DNA from: Patescibacteria group bacterium
Lineage (GTDB): Bacteria; Patescibacteriota; JABMPQ01; JAQVVF01
Direction: 5' to 3'
DNA length: 64,000 nt
NCBI GenBank assembly: GCA_041662665.1
Contig: JBAZSC010000003.1
Coordinates: forward strand, 76,333-140,332
Under the pieces are notes generated by a model. It made no database searches. It worked only from the letters and a program-made list of their open reading frames with translations, and was not told the origin of the DNA. Positions 9,742 to 42,721 of the stretch are shown piece after piece; the stretch's first letter is position 1; every line of letters starts with the position of its first letter. The position numbers and the translations under genes are program-made.

Positions 9742-9834
9742 AAAAATATTTAATTATATAATTGACAATAATGATTTAAAGATTTAAGATACTTTGAGAT
9801 GTTTTCCCCAGATTGGGAAGGAGAGGAGGGAGAA

Positions 9835-10845
9835 ATGACAGACAGAAAACAGGTAGTTCTTTCAGGAATTAGAGCGACAGGACAAATGCATTTGGGCAAT
9901 TACCTTGGAGCAATGCGTCATTTTGTGGAATTAAGCAGAGATCCTAGCAAGCGATGTTTTTTCTTTGTGGCTGATTTGCACACATTGACGACTTTGAAAG
10001 ATCGGCAACAAATGGCAAAGCATTTGCCAAATATCGTTTTGGATTATTTGGCTGCTGGAATTGATCCTAGGGTTGCAACTTTGTATGCTCAGTCATCTGT
10101 GCCAGAAATTTCCGAGCTTTTTTGGCTATTGTGCAATTTTATGCCAGTTGCTGATTTGTTGCTTTGTCCGTCTTACAAGGATAAGGCGTCCAAGAATCCT
10201 CAAATTGCTGGTTTGTTGAATTATCCAATTCTGATGGCTGCTGATATTTTGGCTCCCAGAGGCGAATTGATTCCTGTCGGCCATGATCAAATTCCGCACG
10301 TTGAAATGGCAAGACAGATTGCTCGTGATTTTAATCGAGAGGTTGAAGAAGAGCTTTTTGTAATTCCAGAACATTTGGGTGGCGAATCAATTACTGTGAA
10401 GGGGTTGCATGGTGAAGGAAAGATGGGTAAAAGTGAAAAGCCGGATTCAACTATTTTCTTGACTGATAGCTATGATATTGTTTGGGGTAAATTGCGGACA
10501 GCAACTACTGATCCAGATAGGAAAAGAAGAAATGATCCAGGAAATCCAGCAGTTTGCAATGTATTTACTTTGCACACACTTTTGTCTCCAGATGAGAAAT
10601 TCCGAGAAATGGCCGAAGGTTGTCGAACTGCTTCGATTGGATGCATTGATTGTAAGAAAGAATTGATGATTCATTTGTGGAAATTGTTGGCTGAATTTCA
10701 AGCAAATCGCCAGCGAATTTTGCAGAATGGAGGCATTGATTATGTTAGGAATGTTCTGATTGAAGGTGGAAAAAATGCAAGGTCTGTGATTCAGTTTACT
10801 GTGCAAAGAGCACAAGAATTGATGGGTGTAGCAACTTATCTTTGA
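9835..10845 (+). CDS. trpS: Tryptophanyl-tRNA synthetase
   Basis: Class-I aaRS motifs HLGNYLGA (HIGH-like) and KMGKS (KMSKS). Strong SD GGAGAGGAGGG upstream of ATG 9835. G+C visibly higher than flanking genes. Confidence 0.9.
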   Translation: MTDRKQVVLSGIRATGQMHLGNYLGAMRHFVELSRDPSKRCFFFVADLHTLTTLKDRQQMAKHLPNIVLDYLAAGIDPRVATLYAQSSVPEISELFWLLCNFMPVADLLLCPSYKDKASKNPQIAGLLNYPILMAADILAPRGELIPVGHDQIPHVEMARQIARDFNREVEEELFVIPEHLGGESITVKGLHGEGKMGKSEKPDSTIFLTDSYDIVWGKLRTATTDPDRKRRNDPGNPAVCNVFTLHTLLSPDEKFREMAEGCRTASIGCIDCKKELMIHLWKLLAEFQANRQRILQNGGIDYVRNVLIEGGKNARSVIQFTVQRAQELMGVATYL

Positions 10846-10884: not shown

Positions 10885-10953
10885 AAAAAGCAGATAATAA
10901 TAGACTTAAATATAAAGTTGTACTTTGACAACCCGAAAAGGGAGGGAAGAGAA

Positions 10954-11622
10954 ATGCAAGAAGAAGCCGCGAAGTTTTATCAGCATTTGGAATATTTGAA
11001 CGTTTTTAAGCCTTATCTTGACGCGAAAGCATACAATGATGTTGTTAGTCAAGCATTAAGAAAAACTTTGGCTGATCCATTTTTTCATGGTAGAAGAATC
11101 AGAGTTTTGGATTGTGGAACTGGTACAGGAAGAGGATTGATTAGATTGATTAAAGATGGCTTTTTGAGGAATGCATATATTGAAGCTTTTGATGTAGACA
11201 GAGATTTGTTGATGGGTATGCCTCGCTTGTTTGAAGAGCATGCTGTTTTGAATGGTTGGTCATACAAGCCTTTAGATTGTAAGGACCCAGCTAATTTTCA
11301 GTTCAGTATTACTTGTGAAAAAGAAGGTATTGATATTGTAGTGCATGGTTTTGTTTGTTCTGTTTATGATATTGGGTCAGAAATACTGCTTGAGGAAGTG
11401 GATTTGGTAATTGGTCAGGCTTTTATTGAACATGTTAATTCTCAGCTTGCTTATGGCAGACTATTAGGATTGCTGAAAAGCGGTGGGTTTGTCTATTTTT
11501 CTATGAACTGTGATGGATGGTTTTGTTATACTCCTTGTCCTCGTGGTTCTGAAGATAGAGATACTAAAATTATGAATTTGTTTAATGATTTGGCAATGAA
11601 TGATCAGAACTATGGTAATTAA
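10954..11622 (+). CDS. Class I SAM-dependent methyltransferase
   Basis: Glycine-rich SAM motif VLDCGTGTGRG; strong SD AAAGGGAGGGAAG. Confidence 0.55.
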   Translation: MQEEAAKFYQHLEYLNVFKPYLDAKAYNDVVSQALRKTLADPFFHGRRIRVLDCGTGTGRGLIRLIKDGFLRNAYIEAFDVDRDLLMGMPRLFEEHAVLNGWSYKPLDCKDPANFQFSITCEKEGIDIVVHGFVCSVYDIGSEILLEEVDLVIGQAFIEHVNSQLAYGRLLGLLKSGGFVYFSMNCDGWFCYTPCPRGSEDRDTKIMNLFNDLAMNDQNYGN

Positions 11623-11664
11623 TCTGGTGCAATCTATGGTGGTAGAGCATTTTGCGGTCGAAAT

Positions 11665-11952
11665 TTGCCTTATGATTTTAAAAGAAGAGGTTTAAAAACT
11701 TTGGCTTATGGACCATCAGATTGGGTTGTAACTCCATATGATCAAGTAGATCAGGAATTGGGATTTTTGAGGCATACTTTGGCAGAAATAAAAGATATTT
11801 GTATTTCAGAAAAAGCATTGGAAATGAGGTCAAAGTGGAATGTTAGCGTTTCAGAAATTTTAGAATGGTATTTGGAAAAGTTTGCAGCAATTTCTGATAA
11901 AAGTATTGGTTTTACTTGCGTTCAGAAAGATATTTTAGGGAGGAAGATTTAG
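11665..11952 (+). other. ORF in the same frame as the upstream methyltransferase, separated from it by a single TAA (11620-11622); either a C-terminal continuation (pseudogene or recoding) or a separate small protein
   Basis: 10954 and 11665 are both in frame 1; the frame is open from 11623; there is no SD in front of ATG 11665. Confidence 0.3.
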
Positions 11953-12054
11953 TTCTTAGCGTGTGAATTGCACGCTTTTTTTATTGACTTGTTAAAATGA
12001 ATATACTAAATTAACTTAATGTTCTTTATTCCAACCAGAAAAGGAGGGAAGGAA

Positions 12055-12630
12055 ATGGGAGCTGTAAATAAAAATTTATTTGATGAAGCAGTTAGAAGAG
12101 CAAAATTGATTGCTCAAAATTGTTCTTCTGTTAATTTGATTTTTTTGGATCAATGGCGAAGATCAAGAGAAGAAGATAAATGGAGGTTGACATATTTAGG
12201 TGATGACATTGGTTGTTGTTCTAGTGATTGTTTAAATTGCCCTATCTTTTGGAGTTGTGGAGGAATGGATGATCCTTTTGATGAAAACAAACTTGTAACA
12301 ACTTTGGTCTTGGCAACGAAATCTGATTTACGAAATTATGATGGAAGACAAGTCTATCTTAATTGTAAATCGTTAGATCAATATGTTATTTCTTTTGTTA
12401 ATTGCTTTGTTGGAAGTTGTCATAATCGAGTAACAATGCTTGATGAATTAGATTATGTTGCGGGATTTAAAGTTGTTTATTCTCGAGACGAGATTGATTT
12501 AACAACTCTTGAAATGAGAATAAAGGAAAGAATTATAAAGGGATGTTTATTAAGATATTCAGAAAAAGAAAAAGAAATTTTTTCAGCTGCAGTGTTAGAG
12601 ATTGGATTTCCTAAATATTTTGTAATTTGA
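12055..12630 (+). CDS. Cys-rich hypothetical protein (CSSDCLNCPIFWSCGG…CFVGSCHN)
   Basis: Strong SD AAAAGGAGGGAAGG; own promoter (TTGACT) and terminator; no recognisable family. Confidence 0.45.
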   Translation: MGAVNKNLFDEAVRRAKLIAQNCSSVNLIFLDQWRRSREEDKWRLTYLGDDIGCCSSDCLNCPIFWSCGGMDDPFDENKLVTTLVLATKSDLRNYDGRQVYLNCKSLDQYVISFVNCFVGSCHNRVTMLDELDYVAGFKVVYSRDEIDLTTLEMRIKERIIKGCLLRYSEKEKEIFSAAVLEIGFPKYFVI

Positions 12631-12637
12631 ACATTGT

Positions 12638-12668
12638 GATCATACATGGATTGTATGATTTTTTTTAT
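12638..12668 (+). terminator. Terminator hairpin gatcatacatggattgtatgatc + T8
   Basis: Stem-loop plus T-run, followed by TTGACT(12677)…TATAAT(about 12703) promoter. Confidence 0.55.
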
Positions 12669-12711
12669 TTTCTCTTGACTTTAAAAATATTTTTGATAAT
12701 ATAATAAGTGA

Positions 12712-13093
12712 AACTTAAAACTTTAAAAATCGTTGACCTGGAAAAAGTAAGTTAGTTATTTTTAAAAGTCTGCTTTCGCTAAAGCTACAGCAGACGAAGC
12801 GAATAAGGGATAGTGAGAGCCTTATAAAAATACTAGCTGAAAATGGATCCAGCGAGATGATAAGTTAAATACTTATCCGGTTGCCTCCGTAACCATAGGC
12901 TAACTGATATCTTGAATCCACCTTTGCTAAAGCTTCGGTGGACAAAGGAGTCAGTAAGTGATCAGTGTTTTTGCACTGATAAACAAGGTGGTAACACGGG
13001 AAGACTTCTCGTCCTTGAATACTTTTTAGAAGTATTTTAGGATGAGAAGTTTTTTGTTATGATCGATCTTTCACAACGCAAGGAGGAGAGAAG
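12712..13093 (+). promoter_or_regulatory. About 380-nt structured 5' leader of the RPH-like gene, containing two copies of the CCGCC-hairpin element and several other stem-loops
   Basis: Promoter TTGACT-N17/18-TATAAT at 12677-12708. Hairpins at 12769-12801, 12858-12882 and 12916-12950; a weak terminator-like hairpin at 13018-13040; SD AAGGAGGAG at 13080. Confidence 0.45.
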
Positions 13094-15619
13094 ATGAAAG
13101 TTCTATACCTGAGAAATCTGATGGGTTTGGAAGTGTCGCAGATTGGTGGCAAAGCATTTAATTTGGGCAAGTTAATTATGGCTGGATTTAATGTACCAAG
13201 TAGAGGTTTTGTGTTAGATGTGGATGTTTTGGACAGTTGGCCAAGTGGACGTGAAGAAGTAGCAGATTTTTTTGTAGATTATTTTGGTGGACAAGTCGTA
13301 GCTGTGAGAAGTTCAGCAGTAGCAGAAGATTCTGGATCAGCTTCTTTTGCTGGTCAGTACAAAACTACCTTGCATGTTAGGACTAGGGAAGAATTTTTGC
13401 GAGCAGTTGATGATTTCGTTGCTGGTTTGCTTGATGATGGCATTCAAGCATATCAGACAGTAGTTAAGCAGAAAGATTCAGGTCGACGGCAGGCAGCTTT
13501 GATTGTTCAGGAAATGGTTGAAGCAGAAATTGCTGGTGTGCTTTTTACGGTTAACCCACTCGATGGTTTGGACGAGATGATGATTACAGCAGCTTCTGGT
13601 ATTGGTGAGGCATTGGTATCTGGTCAGGTGACTGGAGATACATATGTTGTTGATAGAGATGGGATGCTCAAAAAGATGGTTATCGGCGGTGTAAAAAAAG
13701 ATTTGCGAGATGGTGTTGGCTTGATGACAAATAGAGATGTTGCTGAGAGAATTTTGGATGATAGTTTGCTGATGTATTTAGTAAAAATTGGCAAGCGGGT
13801 TGAAGAACTATTCCAATGTCCGCAAGATATCGAATGGGCAATTGTTGGTTCGCAGATTTTTTTGCTGCAAGCTCGACCAATTACGGCAATGTCTACTTTG
13901 GGTTTGCAGCGTCAAAAAGTTATTGATGATCTTGGAAATTCTTTTGAAAAAGAGAGAGCGAGATTGGAAGAGTTAGGTGTTGTATTGGCAACTGATTGTT
14001 TTTCTGATCAAAATATTGCTGAGCTTTTGACTCGTCATCCTACGCCAATGGCTTTTGGAGCATTCTGTTATATTTTTGCTGATGGCGAAGCTGGAATCCG
14101 GCTTGGTCGCAATCAAATGGGTTATGAGATTGGGTCAGAACTTGATCATGGTTTTTTCAGATTAGTTGGTGGTCAACCTCGTTGTAGTATTGTTCATGAT
14201 GCTTTTACTTATCGGATTGCTGGAATTCCGTTGTCGGATTATGCGATTTTGGTGAGATATTATTTGGAGAAAATTGCTGAAGATTCTAAAATGGCAAATT
14301 ATCCAGAAGTAGTGCTCTATAAGCAAGATCCGAGTTTGGAATTTCTGACAGAATTGTTTGGAGCAGAAAAAGCACAGTTCTATCGAGTGGCTTTTGATCG
14401 ATTTTTTACTGGATTAGCAGTGTTGATTGAGCAAACGGTGTTGGAGATGAAGACATTCGAAGATGATTTTAGGGCTTATATTGCAAGAGAGAAAGTCAAG
14501 ATGGAAAGTTTGGACATGAATCTTCAAGCTAATATTGCTCTATGCATGGAAATGTTTGATCATCTGCGAACTGTTGCTTGTGTGATGTTTGTTAAAGTTG
14601 CACGTTTGGGATTTTTTGCTTATGCACGACTTCGAGAAAAAATGGCATTGCATTATGGTAAAGAAAAGGGCGAGCAGTTGTTAGCAACATTAACTAGTGG
14701 ATTGGATAATGATCCGTCTTTGCATTTCAATGTTTGTTTGGCACAGTATCGTGATGGTCAAATCACTTTTTCTGAACTTTTGGAAAGATATGGTCATTTG
14801 GGTGCGAATGAACTAGAGGTTTCAGGATTGCGTTATCATGAAGATTCAAGTTTGTTGGAGCGTTACGCAGAACAGATTGCTGGAGATCCTCGTGTTGAAT
14901 TGGCACGCAGAAAGGCAGAATGTGATAAGGTTCGTGCAACTGTGGCAACGGAATTGGGAGAAGAAGTGGCTAGCTGGGTTGAGGTAGCGCGACAGTATTT
15001 GGCTGGTAGAGAATTAATCAAATATCTTTATTTGATGGAATATGATTTAGTTCGGCAAATGTTACTTAGAATCGAAAAGATTTTACATTGGGAAGATGAT
15101 TTGGTCTTCTGTCTTTATCCAGGAGAGATTCCAATGTTGCAATATGATAGCGAACGTATCCATAGAAAAGCAGTTGCGCGTTTGCAGCGTAGGCGTGAGC
15201 AAATGAATATCTATGTTCCGCCAGTAATTTTCTCTGATGATTTGGAGAGGATCGGTCAATCTCCATATCAAGCATCTGATAAGATTTTGACTGGCTTTGG
15301 AGTGACAGATCAGGTGGTGACTGGAGAGGTAGTTAAAGTGGCTGATCCAAGGGATAGAAAACAAATTGCCAAGCTTTTTGCAGGTTGTGTTCTAGTGACA
15401 ATGACAACTGATCCTTCTTGGGCCCCATTGATTGCAGCGATTGGTAGTAACGGTGGTTTGGTGACTGAGATTGGAGGTCCTTTGGCGCATGGGGCAATTG
15501 TAGCTAGAGAATTGGGAATTGGCGCTGTCTTGGATGTTACTGGAGCAATGCAGATTTTGCAGGATGGAATGAGAGTAGAGGTTAATGGTCCTTTGGGAGT
15601 TGTGAAGATTTTGGATTGA
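13094..15619 (+). CDS. PEP-utilising-enzyme family protein with PPDK-N ATP-grasp domain and C-terminal swivelling His domain (rifampin-phosphotransferase / PEP-synthase-like)
   Basis: N-terminus 'QIGGKAFNLGKL…GFNVPSRGFVL'; C-terminus 'LVTEIGGPLAHGAIVARELGIGAVL' (PEP-utilisers mobile-domain His); no PEP-binding TIM barrel; about 840 aa like the Rph family. Confidence 0.7.
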   Translation: MKVLYLRNLMGLEVSQIGGKAFNLGKLIMAGFNVPSRGFVLDVDVLDSWPSGREEVADFFVDYFGGQVVAVRSSAVAEDSGSASFAGQYKTTLHVRTREEFLRAVDDFVAGLLDDGIQAYQTVVKQKDSGRRQAALIVQEMVEAEIAGVLFTVNPLDGLDEMMITAASGIGEALVSGQVTGDTYVVDRDGMLKKMVIGGVKKDLRDGVGLMTNRDVAERILDDSLLMYLVKIGKRVEELFQCPQDIEWAIVGSQIFLLQARPITAMSTLGLQRQKVIDDLGNSFEKERARLEELGVVLATDCFSDQNIAELLTRHPTPMAFGAFCYIFADGEAGIRLGRNQMGYEIGSELDHGFFRLVGGQPRCSIVHDAFTYRIAGIPLSDYAILVRYYLEKIAEDSKMANYPEVVLYKQDPSLEFLTELFGAEKAQFYRVAFDRFFTGLAVLIEQTVLEMKTFEDDFRAYIAREKVKMESLDMNLQANIALCMEMFDHLRTVACVMFVKVARLGFFAYARLREKMALHYGKEKGEQLLATLTSGLDNDPSLHFNVCLAQYRDGQITFSELLERYGHLGANELEVSGLRYHEDSSLLERYAEQIAGDPRVELARRKAECDKVRATVATELGEEVASWVEVARQYLAGRELIKYLYLMEYDLVRQMLLRIEKILHWEDDLVFCLYPGEIPMLQYDSERIHRKAVARLQRRREQMNIYVPPVIFSDDLERIGQSPYQASDKILTGFGVTDQVVTGEVVKVADPRDRKQIAKLFAGCVLVTMTTDPSWAPLIAAIGSNGGLVTEIGGPLAHGAIVARELGIGAVLDVTGAMQILQDGMRVEVNGPLGVVKILD

Positions 15620-15703
15620 TCTTTTTTGCGAGCAAGCAGATTTATCTGCTTTCTTTTTCTGTTTTGTTTTATTAAGATAATACAAAAGAGAAGAGGAAAT
15701 ATT

Positions 15704-16243
15704 ATGAAGAAAAAAATAATTTTATTTGTTTGTTCTGGAAACATGTTTCGGTCACCAATTGCTGAGGCATATTTTGATATGCTTTTAAAAAAGAATAACG
15801 ATCATAAATTTTTTGTTGCAAAATCAGCAGGAATTCAAGGTACTGGTGGAAAGATAAAATTAAAAGGACAAAATCCTCCAAAATTTAAAAATTTAAGAAA
15901 TTATGAATTAGAATGGAAGCATTCTGAGCCATTGTTAAAGTCGGCAAATATTGATATTTCTAAACATAATTTTGTTGCTATTAATAAGAAAATTATTTTA
16001 GAATCAAGTTTGATTATTGCAATGAGTAAAGATATATATCAAACAAGAACTAACTCTTTATTAAATCAATTTTTAGAAAACAAAGACAAGATTTTTTTAT
16101 TAAGCAATATAATAAACAAAAAAAGAGGAATACCTGATGTTTTTGGAAAAAGAAAAAGGAGAATGTATAAAGTTGCAATTGGACAAATACAAAATTATTT
16201 GGATTCTGGTTATAAGAAAATTATTAAATTAGCTAAAAACTAA
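15704..16243 (+). CDS. Low-molecular-weight protein-tyrosine-phosphatase / ArsC-like (LMWPc) protein
   Basis: P-loop CSGNMFRS (C-X5-R) at the N-terminus after ATG 15704. Confidence 0.65.
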   Translation: MKKKIILFVCSGNMFRSPIAEAYFDMLLKKNNDHKFFVAKSAGIQGTGGKIKLKGQNPPKFKNLRNYELEWKHSEPLLKSANIDISKHNFVAINKKIILESSLIIAMSKDIYQTRTNSLLNQFLENKDKIFLLSNIINKKRGIPDVFGKRKRRMYKVAIGQIQNYLDSGYKKIIKLAKN

Positions 16244-16325: not shown

Positions 16326-16398
16326 CGGGCCAGGAGGGATTCGAACCCACAGCATTCGGTTTTGGAGACCGACGCTCTACCATTAGAGCTACTGGCCC
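16326..16398 (-). tRNA. tRNA-Trp (anticodon CCA)
   Basis: Reverse-complement cloverleaf: acceptor GGGCCAG/CTGGCCC, D-arm GCTC-TAATGGTA-GAGC, anticodon stem TCGGT/ACCGA with loop CTCCAAA, T-loop TTCGAAT. Confidence 0.8.
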
Positions 16399-36381: not shown

Positions 36382-36423
36382 ATCCGCCTTCGCTTCTGCT
36401 GAAGCTACGGCGGACAAGTAAAG
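36382..36423 (+). repeat. CCGCC-hairpin element (ATCCGCCTTCGC-ttctgctgaagctac-GGCGGACAAGTAAAG) inserted in a TAAAGTTNN 9-bp array
   Basis: Stem CCGCC/GGCGG; paralogs at 12769, 12916 and 41447 with covarying stems. Confidence 0.6.
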
Positions 36424-36938: not shown

Positions 36939-38516
36939 ATGCGGGCAGATCAAATTAAGAATAGAAAAGATAGAACTATTTATAGATTACTGGAAATATT
37001 GCCGGGCTTTTTGTCTTGGGGAGTTTTATTAGGAAGTACTATCTTGTCTTTTGTTGAGCCTGTTTGGGTAGCAATTTTTATTATTTGTTTTGATGTCTAT
37101 TGGTTAATAAAAGTACTTTATTTAGCAGTATATTTATTGGTTTCTTATCGCAGATTAAAAAAGAATGAAAAAGAGCCATGGCTTAAAAATTGTAATAAAA
37201 TTAAAGTTACAGATCTACCTTCGTCTTCTGACTCCGGTAGACAAAGCAGGCCGAAATTTGAAGAGATTCATCATTTGGTAATTATACCGATGGTTTTTGA
37301 AGATGTTGATATTGTAAGACAGACTTTTCAAGCATTAATTAATTCTAATTATCCGAAAGATAAAATGATTGTTGTTTTAGCAACTGAAGAAAGAGCTGGA
37401 GTTTGGGCAGAAAAAGTTGCTGATCAAATTCGTGGTGAGTTTGGTGATAAATTTTTTCATTTTGCAGTGACTAAGCATCCTGATAATATTGTTGGCGAAT
37501 TAAAGGGTAAGGGCTCTAATGAAACTTGGGCAGCAAAAGAAATTAGGAAATTTATTGATGAAAAAGGATTTACATACGAAAGCGTTATTACTTCAGTTTT
37601 TGATGTTGATACTTGTGTTCATCCTGAATATTTTGGTATATTAACTTATAAATTTTTGACTGTCGAAGATCATTTGCATGCTTCTTTTCAGCCTGTGCCG
37701 ATGTTTTTTAATAATCTTTGGGATTCTCCAGCTTTAATGAGAATTGTGGCAATGAGCACGACTTTTTGGATGTTAATGGAACAAGGTAGGCCAGAGAAAT
37801 TATATACGTTTTCTAGCCATAGCATGAATTTTAAAACTCTTGTTGAAGTTGGTTATTGGGAGACTGATGTTGTTTCTGAAGATTCAAGAATTTTTTGGCA
37901 ATGCTTTAATTTTTATAATGGCAATTATCGTTGTGAGCCTTTGTTGATTCCTGTTTATATGGATACTGTTTTGGCTGGAACTTTTTGGCAAAGTGTAGTT
38001 AATCAATACAAGCAACAGCGAAGATGGGCTTATGGAGCAGAAAATATTCCTTATGTATTAACGAGATTCGCAAAGAATAAAAAGATGTCTTTTTTTAAAA
38101 AGATTGATCATGGTTTTTGGGTAGTTGAAGGCATGCTTTCTTGGGCAACAAATTCAATAATAATTTTCTTGGCTGGCTGGTTGCCTTTGTTTGTTGGCGG
38201 AGAAGCTTTTTCAAAATCTTTATTAGCACAAAATTTGCCATATGTAACGCAGATATTAATGACATTAGCAATGTTGGGAATGATTGTTTCAGCAACTTTA
38301 AGTATGTTCATGTTGCCACCAAGACCAAAAAGACATGGTCAGCACAAAATATTGTTTATGCTTTTGCAATGGATCTTATTGCCTATTTCAACAATTTGCT
38401 TAGGTTCTTTTCCGGCATTAGATGCGCAAACAAGATTAATGTTTGGAAAATATATGGGATTTTGGGTGACTGAGAAGGCGAGGAAGCGCGACGATGATGT
38501 TAAAAAACAAAATTAA
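36939..38516 (+). CDS. Membrane-embedded processive family-2 glycosyltransferase (cellulose/chitin-synthase-like)
   Basis: N- and C-terminal TM bundles; D, DxD and 'QQRRW' (QxxRW) motifs. Confidence 0.6.
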   Translation: MRADQIKNRKDRTIYRLLEILPGFLSWGVLLGSTILSFVEPVWVAIFIICFDVYWLIKVLYLAVYLLVSYRRLKKNEKEPWLKNCNKIKVTDLPSSSDSGRQSRPKFEEIHHLVIIPMVFEDVDIVRQTFQALINSNYPKDKMIVVLATEERAGVWAEKVADQIRGEFGDKFFHFAVTKHPDNIVGELKGKGSNETWAAKEIRKFIDEKGFTYESVITSVFDVDTCVHPEYFGILTYKFLTVEDHLHASFQPVPMFFNNLWDSPALMRIVAMSTTFWMLMEQGRPEKLYTFSSHSMNFKTLVEVGYWETDVVSEDSRIFWQCFNFYNGNYRCEPLLIPVYMDTVLAGTFWQSVVNQYKQQRRWAYGAENIPYVLTRFAKNKKMSFFKKIDHGFWVVEGMLSWATNSIIIFLAGWLPLFVGGEAFSKSLLAQNLPYVTQILMTLAMLGMIVSATLSMFMLPPRPKRHGQHKILFMLLQWILLPISTICLGSFPALDAQTRLMFGKYMGFWVTEKARKRDDDVKKQN

Positions 38517-41221: not shown

Positions 41222-42721
41222 GTGTTCGAGTGTTTTATGACAATAGAAGATCTAAAAAAGAAAAATATTCATGTCTTAGGCGTTTCTGGAGCTGAAGGAA
41301 GCGCGGTTTTGGAATTTTTGGCTGATAATGGAGTTAAAAATATTACTGCTCATGATTTTTGCGATCAAGATAAATTTAAAGAAAGTTTTTTTTCTTTTCA
41401 TGACAAAATGACAAAAAAAGAAAAAGAAGAAACATATAATGAGATTATCCGCCTTCGCCAAGGCTCCGGCGGACAAGGAAAGGTTAAGTTTAATTATAAA
41501 GATACTTATCTTGACCAAATTGAAAAGGCAGATTTGATTTTTGTGCCTCAATCTTGGTTTAGATATGCGCAAAATGATTTATTGAACCAGCATAAAGGAA
41601 AAATCGAATTTTCTAATATTACAAAATTATATTTTCAATTTTGCAAAGGCAAAATAATTGCAATAACTGGAACATCTGGAAAATCAACGACTTCAGCATT
41701 AGTAAATGATATAATGAAGCGAGGATATAAATTAGGCAAGGTCTATTTTACTGGCAATGATCGTGAGAATGTACAGATTCTAAAAAATATTTTTGAAATT
41801 AAAGAAAATGATATTTTAGTTGTTGAAGTAAGCAACAGGCAATTAATGATTGATTTGAAAAAAAGTCCGTATATTGGCATTATTACGAATATCTCGCCGA
41901 ATCACATGGATGATCATAAGACTTTTACTGATTATATTACAACAAAGAGAAGTTTGATCAGATATCAAAAAAAAGGTGATTTTGCAATTTTGAATTTTGA
42001 TAATGATATTACAAAGGATATTGGCTTAGATATTGATTCAACAGTTTATTATTTTTCTAGAAAAGGCAGAGTTGATCGAGGCGCTTATGTAAAATTCAAT
42101 GAAATAATAATTCAAGATTTTGAAAGAGAAAGAAAAATTTGTTCAGTTTTGGATTTAAAAATTCCTGGACCACATAACATTGAAAATGCTTTGGCAGCAA
42201 GTTTGGCTGGATATTTGATGAAAATTAATACGAAAGATATCAGAGAAGCATTGTTAAATTTTAAGGGTATAAAATCGAGATTAGAATTAGTAAGAGAAGT
42301 TGATGGCGTTTCATATATTGAAGATTCTTCAGCTTGCAATCCTGATGGGACTGCTGTTGCTGTTTCATCATTTAAAAAACCAATGATTTTAATTGCTGGA
42401 GGATCAAGGAAAAAACCATATCCAGGAGAATTCGATAGAATGGCTGATTCAATAATAAATTCAAAAGTAAAAATTGTTTTTTTGATTGGAGAGAGAGCAG
42501 AAACAATTAAATTAGCTTTAAAAAATTCGAGTATAAGATTTCAAAAAACTAGTCCAATAATTAAAATATCTGAAAATTTGGAGGATGCAGTTATTTCTGC
42601 CAATAAATCAGCAAAAAGAGGTGATATCGTAATTTTATCGCCTGGTTGTGAAAGCTTTGGTCTCTTTATTGATTATCGCGATCGAGCGAGACAGTTTAAA
42701 AAATTAGTGAAAAGTTTATAA
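41222..42721 (+). CDS. murD: UDP-N-acetylmuramoylalanine--D-glutamate ligase carrying an in-frame CCGCC-hairpin element insertion
   Basis: 'HVLGVSGAEGSA', 'GTSGKSTT' Mur-ligase motifs; element at 41447-41482 encodes 'RLRQGSGGQGKV'. Confidence 0.75.
   Translation: MFECFMTIEDLKKKNIHVLGVSGAEGSAVLEFLADNGVKNITAHDFCDQDKFKESFFSFHDKMTKKEKEETYNEIIRLRQGSGGQGKVKFNYKDTYLDQIEKADLIFVPQSWFRYAQNDLLNQHKGKIEFSNITKLYFQFCKGKIIAITGTSGKSTTSALVNDIMKRGYKLGKVYFTGNDRENVQILKNIFEIKENDILVVEVSNRQLMIDLKKSPYIGIITNISPNHMDDHKTFTDYITTKRSLIRYQKKGDFAILNFDNDITKDIGLDIDSTVYYFSRKGRVDRGAYVKFNEIIIQDFERERKICSVLDLKIPGPHNIENALAASLAGYLMKINTKDIREALLNFKGIKSRLELVREVDGVSYIEDSSACNPDGTAVAVSSFKKPMILIAGGSRKKPYPGEFDRMADSIINSKVKIVFLIGERAETIKLALKNSSIRFQKTSPIIKISENLEDAVISANKSAKRGDIVILSPGCESFGLFIDYRDRARQFKKLVKSL

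Follow-up and report, generated by a model that had tools for sequence, protein, structure and literature searches.

The leader of about 380 nt that precedes a dikinase gene resembling rifampin phosphotransferase (RPH) genes in a 64,000-nt stretch of a Patescibacteria contig (JBAZSC010000003.1; this whole stretch is hereafter called the window) is very probably a class-I T-box riboswitch, i.e., one acting by transcription attenuation, with specificity for tRNA-Trp. In a covariance-model (CM) scan, positions 12724-13019 of the forward strand, to which all features below belong unless stated otherwise, match the Rfam T-box leader family RF00230 over the full model (positions 1-219 of 219) with 99.8 bits against a gathering score of 93 (E 8e-23), which is the single cis-regulatory match of the Rfam scan across the entire window. 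For other Rfam families, a sensitive scan of 12600-13200 returned only chance-level miRNA and sRNA matches, all of them sub-threshold (E >= 0.12), and other RNA families, small-molecule riboswitches included, were ruled out on that basis. The leader is a complete T-box of a known family: its RNA mechanism is textbook, whereas its host, a Patescibacterium with an ultrasmall genome, and the regulon are unexpected, and any Rfam-based annotation would catch it. Family membership, the alternative structures, the identity of the UGG codon and of the bulge, the matching tRNA gene, and the conservation across lineages were all computed.

An earlier sequence-only reading had described a long structured leader in front of the RPH-like gene, interpreted as a riboswitch or attenuator, and had named RF00230 among the candidates. 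The scan returned this family at full length and above the gathering score, which supports the cis-regulatory interpretation. The leader itself is confirmed as well: it runs from a sigma-70-type promoter to the ATG at 13094 and is highly structured, with a minimum free energy (MFE) of -125.2 kcal/mol compared with -84.9 +/- 5.6 for dinucleotide shuffles (z = -7.2; 0 of 100 shuffles equal it). That description is essentially correct, with some positions off by 2-10 nt.

According to the CM alignment, all T-box elements are present and follow the family order, from the kink-turn (K-turn) through the T-box sequence AAGGUGGUAACACG. Stem I (12730-12858) aligns with high posterior probabilities and zero non-canonical pairs. 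It begins with the K-turn/GA motif, formed by GUUGAC (12732-12737) and CGAGAU (12853-12858) with UGA at 12734-12736 and GAG at 12854-12856, and continues with the proximal helix CUGGA/UCCAG, the Specifier Loop, and the mid helix. Its AG bulge AGCGA (12798-12802) and distal loop GAUAGUGAGAG (12809-12819) align with high posterior probability to AGAGA and GgUUGGUGaaA of the model, respectively, and a platform is predicted there. In the Specifier Loop, the 5' side AAAAGUA (12743-12749) and the 3' side GAAAAUGGA (12839-12847) contain the S-turn AGUA/GAA, and the specifier codon UGG (Trp) at 12844-12846 is followed by the conserved purine A12847. The stretch AAAAUGGAUC (12840-12849), previously taken for a terminal loop, is actually internal, being the 3' side of this Specifier Loop.

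Stem II (12859-12877, GAUAAGU-UAAAU-ACUUAUC) is a simple hairpin in which no S-turn is evident. It is followed by the Stem IIA/B pseudoknot (12878-12900), a hairpin CGG-UUGCCU-CCG whose loop GCCU (12883-12886) pairs with AGGC (12897-12900), and by a linker helix ACUGAUAUCUU/AAGGAGUCAGU (12903-12955; arms 12903-12913 and 12945-12955) located between Stem IIA/B and Stem III. In the Stem III region (12956-12984), AUCAGUGU-UUUU-GCACUGAU (12961-12980) is flanked 5' by the purine string AAGUG and 3' by AA; the motif RRRxG-Stem III-AA has been described for T-boxes (PMC7583486). The 14-nt T-box sequence at 12985-12998 contains the 7-nt bulge UGGUAAC (12989-12995). Its part GGUGGUAAC was recognized earlier as faintly T-box-like, correctly so, but it belongs to a full rather than an incomplete T-box and lies at 12987-12995 rather than at 12997.

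The antiterminator (12985-13016) is built from helix A1 (AAGG/CCUU), the bulge UGGUAAC, and helix A2 (ACGGG/CUCGU), and amounts to only -5.1 kcal/mol on its own. The intrinsic terminator (13000-13055) comprises a hairpin of about 25 bp (13000-13054, -29.7 kcal/mol) with the core CUUCUCGUCCU (13005-13015)/AGGAUGAGAAG (13039-13049) and a U6 tract (13050-13055) after or overlapping the hairpin. The weak terminator aatacttt-ttag-aagtattt (13018-13037) of the sequence-only reading is merely the apical part of this far stronger structure. Since the 5' strand of the terminator and the 3' strands of the antiterminator share nt 13000-13016, the two are mutually exclusive. The terminator is identical in L052, the locus of a close relative, and has equivalents in L053, L056, L057, L076, L161, and L164.

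A tRNA-Trp gene with anticodon CCA and discriminator G73, the predicted effector, lies 700 nt downstream on the opposite strand (16326-16398, reverse), and the bulge UGGU fits its 3' GCCA via a U-G73 wobble. U opposite G73 is found in 46% of Trp T-boxes (TBDB). As for the tRNA gene itself, its T stem contains a U50-U64 mismatch where L052 has G-U, and its 3' CCA is not encoded, CCC standing instead. In the proposed switch, transcription would start near 12710 and Stem I would capture tRNA-Trp, its CCA anticodon pairing with UGG at 12844-12846 and its elbow stacking upon the platform of AG bulge and distal loop. When the tRNA is uncharged, its 3' GCCA would pair with UGGU (12989-12992), with G73 opposite U as a wobble, and this pairing, along with Stem III, would stabilize the weak antiterminator, so that RNA polymerase would read into the dikinase (13094-15619) and phosphatase (to 16243) genes. 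With charged tRNA-Trp, the antiterminator would remain unsupported, the stronger terminator would form, and transcription would stop about 40 nt upstream of the ATG. Actual tRNA-dependent antitermination is what we infer from these structures.

The same arrangement recurs in other members of the Candidate Phyla Radiation (CPR). Among 12 distinct CPR loci encoding a homologous dikinase, a Trp T-box stands directly upstream in 8 (the window, L052, L053, L056, L057, L076, L161, and L164), and none was found upstream of the dikinase in 3 (L001, L055, and L162). The remaining locus, L163, has no room for a leader, but a divergent gene of the Trp_repressor family (PF01371; L163:4613-4945, reverse strand) lies 55 nt away from its operon, which consists of an RPH-like and a His_Phos_1 gene without a T-box. 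The regulator appears to have been swapped here, with the tryptophan link retained. The closest dikinase homologues are almost all from CPR, and a T-box core was found upstream of 0 of 52 more distant RPH-like homologues from other phyla.

A metagenome scan with the pseudoknot motif CCTCCGTAAYCATRGGMKAAC yielded 102 leaders, 81 of them distinct and with enough upstream sequence. These metagenome loci (L059-L160) represent a large Trp T-box subclass. Its members have the motif CCUCCGUAAYCAURGG in common, end in intrinsic terminators, and mostly display GGGUUGGGCC on a minimal Stem I. In addition to trp genes, the subclass regulates a GCS2-like ligase (12 loci) and uncharacterized proteins of 145 and 309 aa. 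Its short forms score 29-45 bits in Rfam, far under the gathering score, and standard annotation would therefore miss them. The two bases flanking CCU/AGG of the IIA/B pseudoknot can pair in 83 of 85 distinct leaders (64 with U-A, 19 with G-C) and form a non-pair in the other 2. The linker-helix arms CUGAU/GUCAG are kept across the subclass, with CACG/CGUG in L056 and an apical part that varies by lineage. In a covariation test the changes in this helix turned out mostly invariant or one-sided, so it appears conserved rather than covariation-proven.

Several points weigh against a working tRNA-Trp switch. The bulge UGGUAAC deviates from the consensus UGGNACC (AAC for ACC), helix A2 opens with A-U and not with the usual G-U sensor pair, and Stem II is without the UGCGUUAGUG-type loop of the relatives. 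The MFE fold contains a competing pairing of UUCGCU (12775-12780) with AGCGAA (12798-12803), and a 28-nt hairpin that interrupts Stem I beside the tRNA-elbow platform could impair binding. In addition, the host has not been cultivated, and neither regulated gene is known to take part in tryptophan metabolism. The bulge and the A-U start of A2 are, however, both present in other members of the subclass too.

That 28-nt hairpin (12768-12795) is one of two large insertions with respect to the Rfam model; the other is a stretch of about 53 nt after Stem IIA/B, which holds the second strand of the pseudoknot and the linker helix, tipped by another hairpin (12917-12942). The many hairpins of the leader include one element twice, and the two covarying CCGCC-type hairpins pointed out by the sequence-only reading are indeed present at these positions. 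Hairpin 1, GUCUGC-UUUCGCUAAAGCUACA-GCAGAC, interrupts the 5' strand of Stem I immediately ahead of the AG bulge, where it would form a three-way junction, and hairpin 2, UCCACC-UUUGCUAAAGCUUC-GGUGGA, would cap the linker helix at its variable tip. Both consist of a 6-bp stem enclosing UUYGCUAAAGCUNC and a CAARG-like 3' flank; the stems differ between the copies, and each is fully self-complementary.

The element has at least 5 copies in the window, the further three at 36383-36414, 37214-37241, and 41448-41473, all on the forward strand. According to a profile search, it also occurs in at least 15 other CPR loci, in either orientation and not only within T-box leaders; copies outside leaders include L088:78-104, L156:8576-8614, L120:9324-9356, and L120:10681-10708. 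Its general pattern is UCCGCC-UUCGC..GCUNC-GGCGGA-CAARG with covarying stems, and this palindrome of about 30 nt appears to be a dispersed small repeat family in Patescibacteria. A T-box-specific module had been considered, as a strict pattern matched only in leaders, and was rejected once looser and profile searches found copies elsewhere in both orientations. Similarly to REP/MITE-like repeats (repetitive extragenic palindromes and miniature inverted-repeat transposable elements), the family comprises imperfect palindromes that are dispersed, mostly non-coding, and conserved in loop and flank, with varying stems. In contrast to those repeats, it is conspicuously frequent in T-box leaders, within a sample of loci that was itself selected for T-boxes, which bears on this apparent frequency.

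At the linker-helix tip the repeat is found in either orientation (window, L052, L079, L129, and L160), in L135 it occupies the Stem II loop, and in L120 a reversed copy itself constitutes Stem III. The occurrence of both orientations at one T-box position points to insertion at the DNA level at permissive tips. The two hairpins are probably copies of the dispersed repeat lodged at structurally permissive T-box sites, and most likely neutral passengers. Insertions have likewise been reported in CPR rRNAs (PMC11665869). It is rather unlikely that they tune the switch by adding contacts to tRNA or protein, by serving as sites of pausing or processing, or by kissing via their palindromic AGCU/AAGCUU loops. 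Although both are kept at equivalent positions in L052 with fully compensated stems, unrelated loci (L059, L135, L120, L079, L129, and L160) carry copies in their T-box leaders, one of them as Stem III, and unexplained insertions have been noted in every T-box domain (PMC7583486), the same element also lies outside leaders, and both orientations are used at one position. Moreover, the Stem I insertion is missing from the long-Stem-I relatives L056 and L137, conservation within the leader is lowest in the hairpins, and hairpin 2 of L052 has no AGCU loop motif. The concern that the hairpins are only inserted repeats is thus probably justified for these two. It does not, however, undermine the case for a regulatory leader, because the T-box is complete without these additions.

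The conservation of the leader was assessed against L052, a close relative whose proteins neighbouring the dikinase are 85-89% identical to those of the window, with the DNA identities of individual regions as the baseline. An initial comparison of "leader 90% vs protein 61%" as a proof of selection was discarded as misleading in view of those neighbouring proteins. With the two hairpins left out, the 266 nt of the T-box core align without indels at 95.1% identity, compared with 97.3% for tRNA-Trp and 91.1% for the promoter region (12668-12723). Among the coding sequences, the values are 89.1% for the LMWPc-like gene, 86.2% for the methyltransferase (MTase)-like gene, 82.5% for the decarboxylase dependent on pyridoxal phosphate (PLP), 82.4% for trpS, 73.1% for win_203/L052_191, and 66.0% for the RPH-like gene. 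Hairpin 2 and hairpin 1 reach 71.9% and 52.9%, the intergenic region upstream of trpS 65.6%, and the spacer from the terminator to the ATG 57.9%. Hence the leader is conserved upstream of a homologous gene, its core far exceeding other non-coding DNA (58-66%). The L052 leader scores 97 bits with RF00230, its Stem I substitutions keep pairing (G-C to G-U, U-G to U-A), and Stem II shows a compensatory change from U-A to C-G.

These values make it very improbable that the leader is a decayed T-box relic, or a long untranslated region padded by repeats, without regulatory effect. Such a decay might be suspected from the two inserted repeat copies, one of them within Stem I, and from the off-consensus bulge and helix A2, and insertions in structured RNAs are known for CPR genomes (PMC11665869). 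However, except for the tRNA, the T-box core is the best-conserved DNA of the region (95.1% vs 58-89%), its functional elements are all intact and score above the curated Rfam threshold, the overlap of terminator and antiterminator is preserved, and the same regulation is found again in lineages with enzymes of only about 41-44% identity.

As for the amino acid sensed, UGG falls in the canonical frame given the A12742-U12848 pairing. There are, however, two extra nucleotides between GAA and UGG in the Specifier Loop, and the frame is therefore not obvious from the window sequence alone. It is settled as UGG by comparative evidence. L052 has a loop and bulge identical to those of the window and an adjoining tRNA-Trp gene, and L056, whose enzyme is 44% identical, has the loop GAAAUUGGGCC and the bulge UGGC. 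Among the 81 distinct related leaders, 80 have UGG followed by a purine, mostly as GGGUUGGGCC, and U occupies the variable bulge position in 39 leaders and C in 35, but A and G never do. Genes downstream of these leaders include trpS-like, TrpB-like, TrpD-like, and GATase-like ones. Genes for tRNA-Trp with anticodon CCA and G73 adjoin the operon in the window, L052, L056, and L162. The equivalent specifier slot of a second T-box in L164 holds UUC (Phe); this Phe T-box (L164:2417-2583, on a Kaiserbacteria contig) precedes an ORF (open reading frame) of 140 aa.

Specificity for another amino acid is accordingly a highly unlikely alternative, although the loop GAAAAUGGAU also holds AAU (Asn), AUG (Met), GGA (Gly), and GAU (Asp), the two extra nucleotides blur the frame, a tRNA with A73, for instance tRNA-Met, would be a perfect match for UGGU, and GGA of the window and GGG of L056 are both Gly codons. 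The sole in-register codon conserved between the window and L056 is UGG (AUG becomes UUG), and GGA/GGG are followed by a pyrimidine where the conserved purine is expected. Bacterial tRNA-Gly has U73, which would require UGGA in the bulge. The restriction of the bulge base to U or C in 74 related leaders indicates G73, the relatives regulate trpS, trpB-like, and trpD-like genes with syntenic tRNA-Trp and trpS, and L163 has a TrpR-family gene in place of the T-box. The four other codons were thus rejected on register conservation, the purine rule, the bulge base, and the regulon.

Translational control by a class-II T-box that sequesters the Shine-Dalgarno (SD) sequence can be dismissed with similar confidence, even though many non-Firmicute T-boxes (actinobacterial ileS) act on translation and relatives of the window leader carry the short Stem I typical of class II: the competing hairpin has a U6 tract and ends 25 nt upstream of the SD, the SD lies outside the switch, in neither alternative structure, and all homologous leaders examined end in a hairpin with a U-run.

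In comparison with known systems, the window leader has the same domain order and motifs as the Trp T-boxes of Bacillus subtilis rtpA (yczA-ycbK), the Lactococcus lactis trp operon, and Firmicute trpS. It shares with them UGG followed by a purine, UGGN read by tRNA NCCA with a frequent U-G73 wobble, and terminator/antiterminator competition with a U-tract. In contrast to these T-boxes, it belongs to a Patescibacterium and regulates a dikinase and a phosphatase instead of trpS, trp biosynthesis, a transporter, or anti-TRAP. It also differs in the two extra Specifier Loop nucleotides, the simple Stem II, the additional linker helix, AAC for ACC in the bulge, and the two inserted repeat hairpins. 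The minimal Stem I of L053, L057, L161, L164, and most of the approximately 100 metagenomic Trp T-boxes is shared with actinobacterial ileS T-boxes (Mycobacterium/Nocardia). Like these, the CPR short forms are without the distal platform and have elaborate Stem II and IIA/B. They carry, however, UGG and not an Ile codon, and intrinsic terminators in place of SD-sequestering helices, while the Stem I of the window leader is long and includes the AG bulge and the distal loop.

The promoter found by the motif scan (12675-12702) consists of the -35 element TTGACT (12675-12680), a 16-nt spacer, and the -10 element TAATAT (12697-12702) with an extended-10 TG at 12694-12695, and the transcription start is predicted at about 12709-12712. 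TTGACT had been reported earlier at 12677 and is present, though at 12675-12680, whereas the previously suggested -10 element TATAAT (12700-12705) would leave a spacer of 19 nt and fits less well. Promoters of the form TTGACA-17-TAnnnT precede the homologous leaders of L053, L056, L057, and L076. Upstream, an ORF ends at 12630 and is followed by a terminator-like hairpin ATCATACA-TGGAT-TGTATGAT with T7 (12639-12666, as read from the sequence), which closes the operon on the trpS side; the leader is therefore a separate transcription unit. Another hairpin with a T-run occupies the equivalent position in L052. Downstream of the leader, a strong SD AAGGAGGAG (13080-13088) precedes the ATG (13080-13096 together), and both are free of terminator pairing.

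The first gene of the regulated operon (13094-15619) encodes the RPH/phosphoenolpyruvate (PEP)-synthase-like dikinase, with an N-terminal PPDK_N ATP-grasp domain and a C-terminal swivel domain containing GGPLAH and His799. Its best PDB match is the Listeria rifampin phosphotransferase (E 3e-51), which covers only residues ~68-267 and the C-terminal domain. The scores are 227 bits for the RPH model NF041857 (cutoff 999) and 199-247 bits for PEP synthase models (cutoffs 740-976), and the product thus appears RPH-like in architecture without being an RPH. It has PPDK_N and a swivelling phosphohistidine domain (GGPLAH) in common with Listeria monocytogenes RPH (PDB 5FBS/5HV1) and PEP synthase, but the similarity is limited to these two catalytic end domains. 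In contrast to RPH, it is always paired with a phosphatase and is controlled by tryptophan, the latter being unexpected for rifamycin resistance. Compared with L052:4058-6538, the dikinase is 61% identical in amino acids and 66% in DNA, while its neighbours are mostly at 85-89% (one small ORF at 63%) in amino acids and 73-89% in DNA. The divergence is uneven, at 40-85% per 60-aa block, which points to fast evolution or allele replacement as possible causes.

The second gene (15626-16243) encodes a phosphatase of the low-molecular-weight protein tyrosine phosphatase (LMW-PTP)/ArsC fold with an intact CX5R(S) loop, CSGNMFRS, and is followed by a terminator hairpin with T7. Its true start is probably ATG 15704, since residue 26 is the first one covered by the alignment with L052. 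In every locus whose downstream gene was inspected, a phosphatase, either LMWPc or His_Phos_1, comes after the dikinase; in L161 this slot holds an unannotated 223-aa homologue of His_Phos_1 proteins, and in P0084 dikinase and phosphatase are fused in one protein. Other genes near the operon are trpS (window, L052, L161, L162, and L164), a group-II PLP decarboxylase (window, L052, and L056), M20 peptidases (L052 and L163), and a fusion of a chorismate-mutase (CM_2) domain with an S-adenosylmethionine (SAM)-dependent methyltransferase, which lies between trpS and the operon in L161 (3022-4266), L162 (1852-2988), and L164 (3465-4646, reverse strand). A BLAST comparison of the window ORFs at 10918-12630 with these fusions gave no significant match.

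In the window, trpS, encoding the tryptophan-tRNA ligase (TrpRS), lies at 9799-10845, 2.2 kb upstream (TIGR00233, 262 bits, cutoff 177), and the Rfam scan of the window found no T-box at it. Residues ~253-286 of this TrpRS contain a C-x21-C-x6-C-x2-C motif, which we take to resemble the Fe-S cluster motif of Thermotoga maritima TrpRS. The protein shares only 32% identity with the trpS-like genes under T-box control in other CPR loci, so the group may possess two TrpRS types. Farther downstream, an in-frame TAA (11620-11622) divides one gene into the ORFs 10918-11622 and 11665-11952; L052 has GAA (Glu) at this site and a single, weakly methyltransferase-like protein of 331 aa. Both flanks are well conserved, which suggests a recent nonsense mutation or a sequencing error. 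The murD ORF (41222-41480) likely starts after the repeat at 41448-41473, MurD homology beginning at residue 90. With regard to the host, the window SecA is 89% identical to a protein of a "Patescibacteria group bacterium" and ~60% identical to those of Magasanikbacteria, Uhrbacteria, and Falkowbacteria.

Gene regulation in Patescibacteria/CPR has been described as virtually unknown (PMC11665869). A search of the accessible literature found no paper tying T-boxes to Patescibacteria, and CPR names are absent from the TBDB text and two TBDB supplementary files. The interest of the leader lies in its host, the regulated operon, and the repeat insertions and not in a new kind of RNA. By T-box logic, the operon products should help when tRNA-Trp charging falls. 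Tentatively, and at somewhat less than an even chance, the T-box may mark a previously unrecognized Trp-starvation regulon of Patescibacteria, a dikinase-phosphatase module that serves a step of Trp acquisition or salvage or counters inhibitors of Trp-tRNA charging. This proposal takes together a phosphatase fold that varies between LMW-PTP and His_Phos_1 and is once fused, host bacteria unable to make amino acids, clustering with trpS, tRNA-Trp, PLP decarboxylase, CM_2/methyltransferase, and M20 genes, and either a Trp T-box or an adjoining TrpR-family gene depending on the lineage. The module might provide tryptophan from a phosphorylatable precursor or conjugate, or it might inactivate an inhibitor of Trp-tRNA charging.

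CPR rph genes have been listed as antibiotic-resistance-like, for rifampin (PMC8651080). Control by tryptophan speaks against rifamycin resistance being the main function of this dikinase clade, and if the regulon proposal is true, CPR "rph" genes counted as antibiotic-resistance genes are mis-assigned. The leader is also a natural cis-regulatory part that could serve for inducible expression in the few cultivable Patescibacteria. The T-box offers a functional handle on the enzyme family, which is widespread in CPR and is wired to tryptophan in at least 8 independent lineages, with a TrpR-family neighbour in another. As a predicted Trp sensor, it would be evidence that host-dependent, amino-acid-auxotrophic bacteria monitor the charging of tRNA-Trp.

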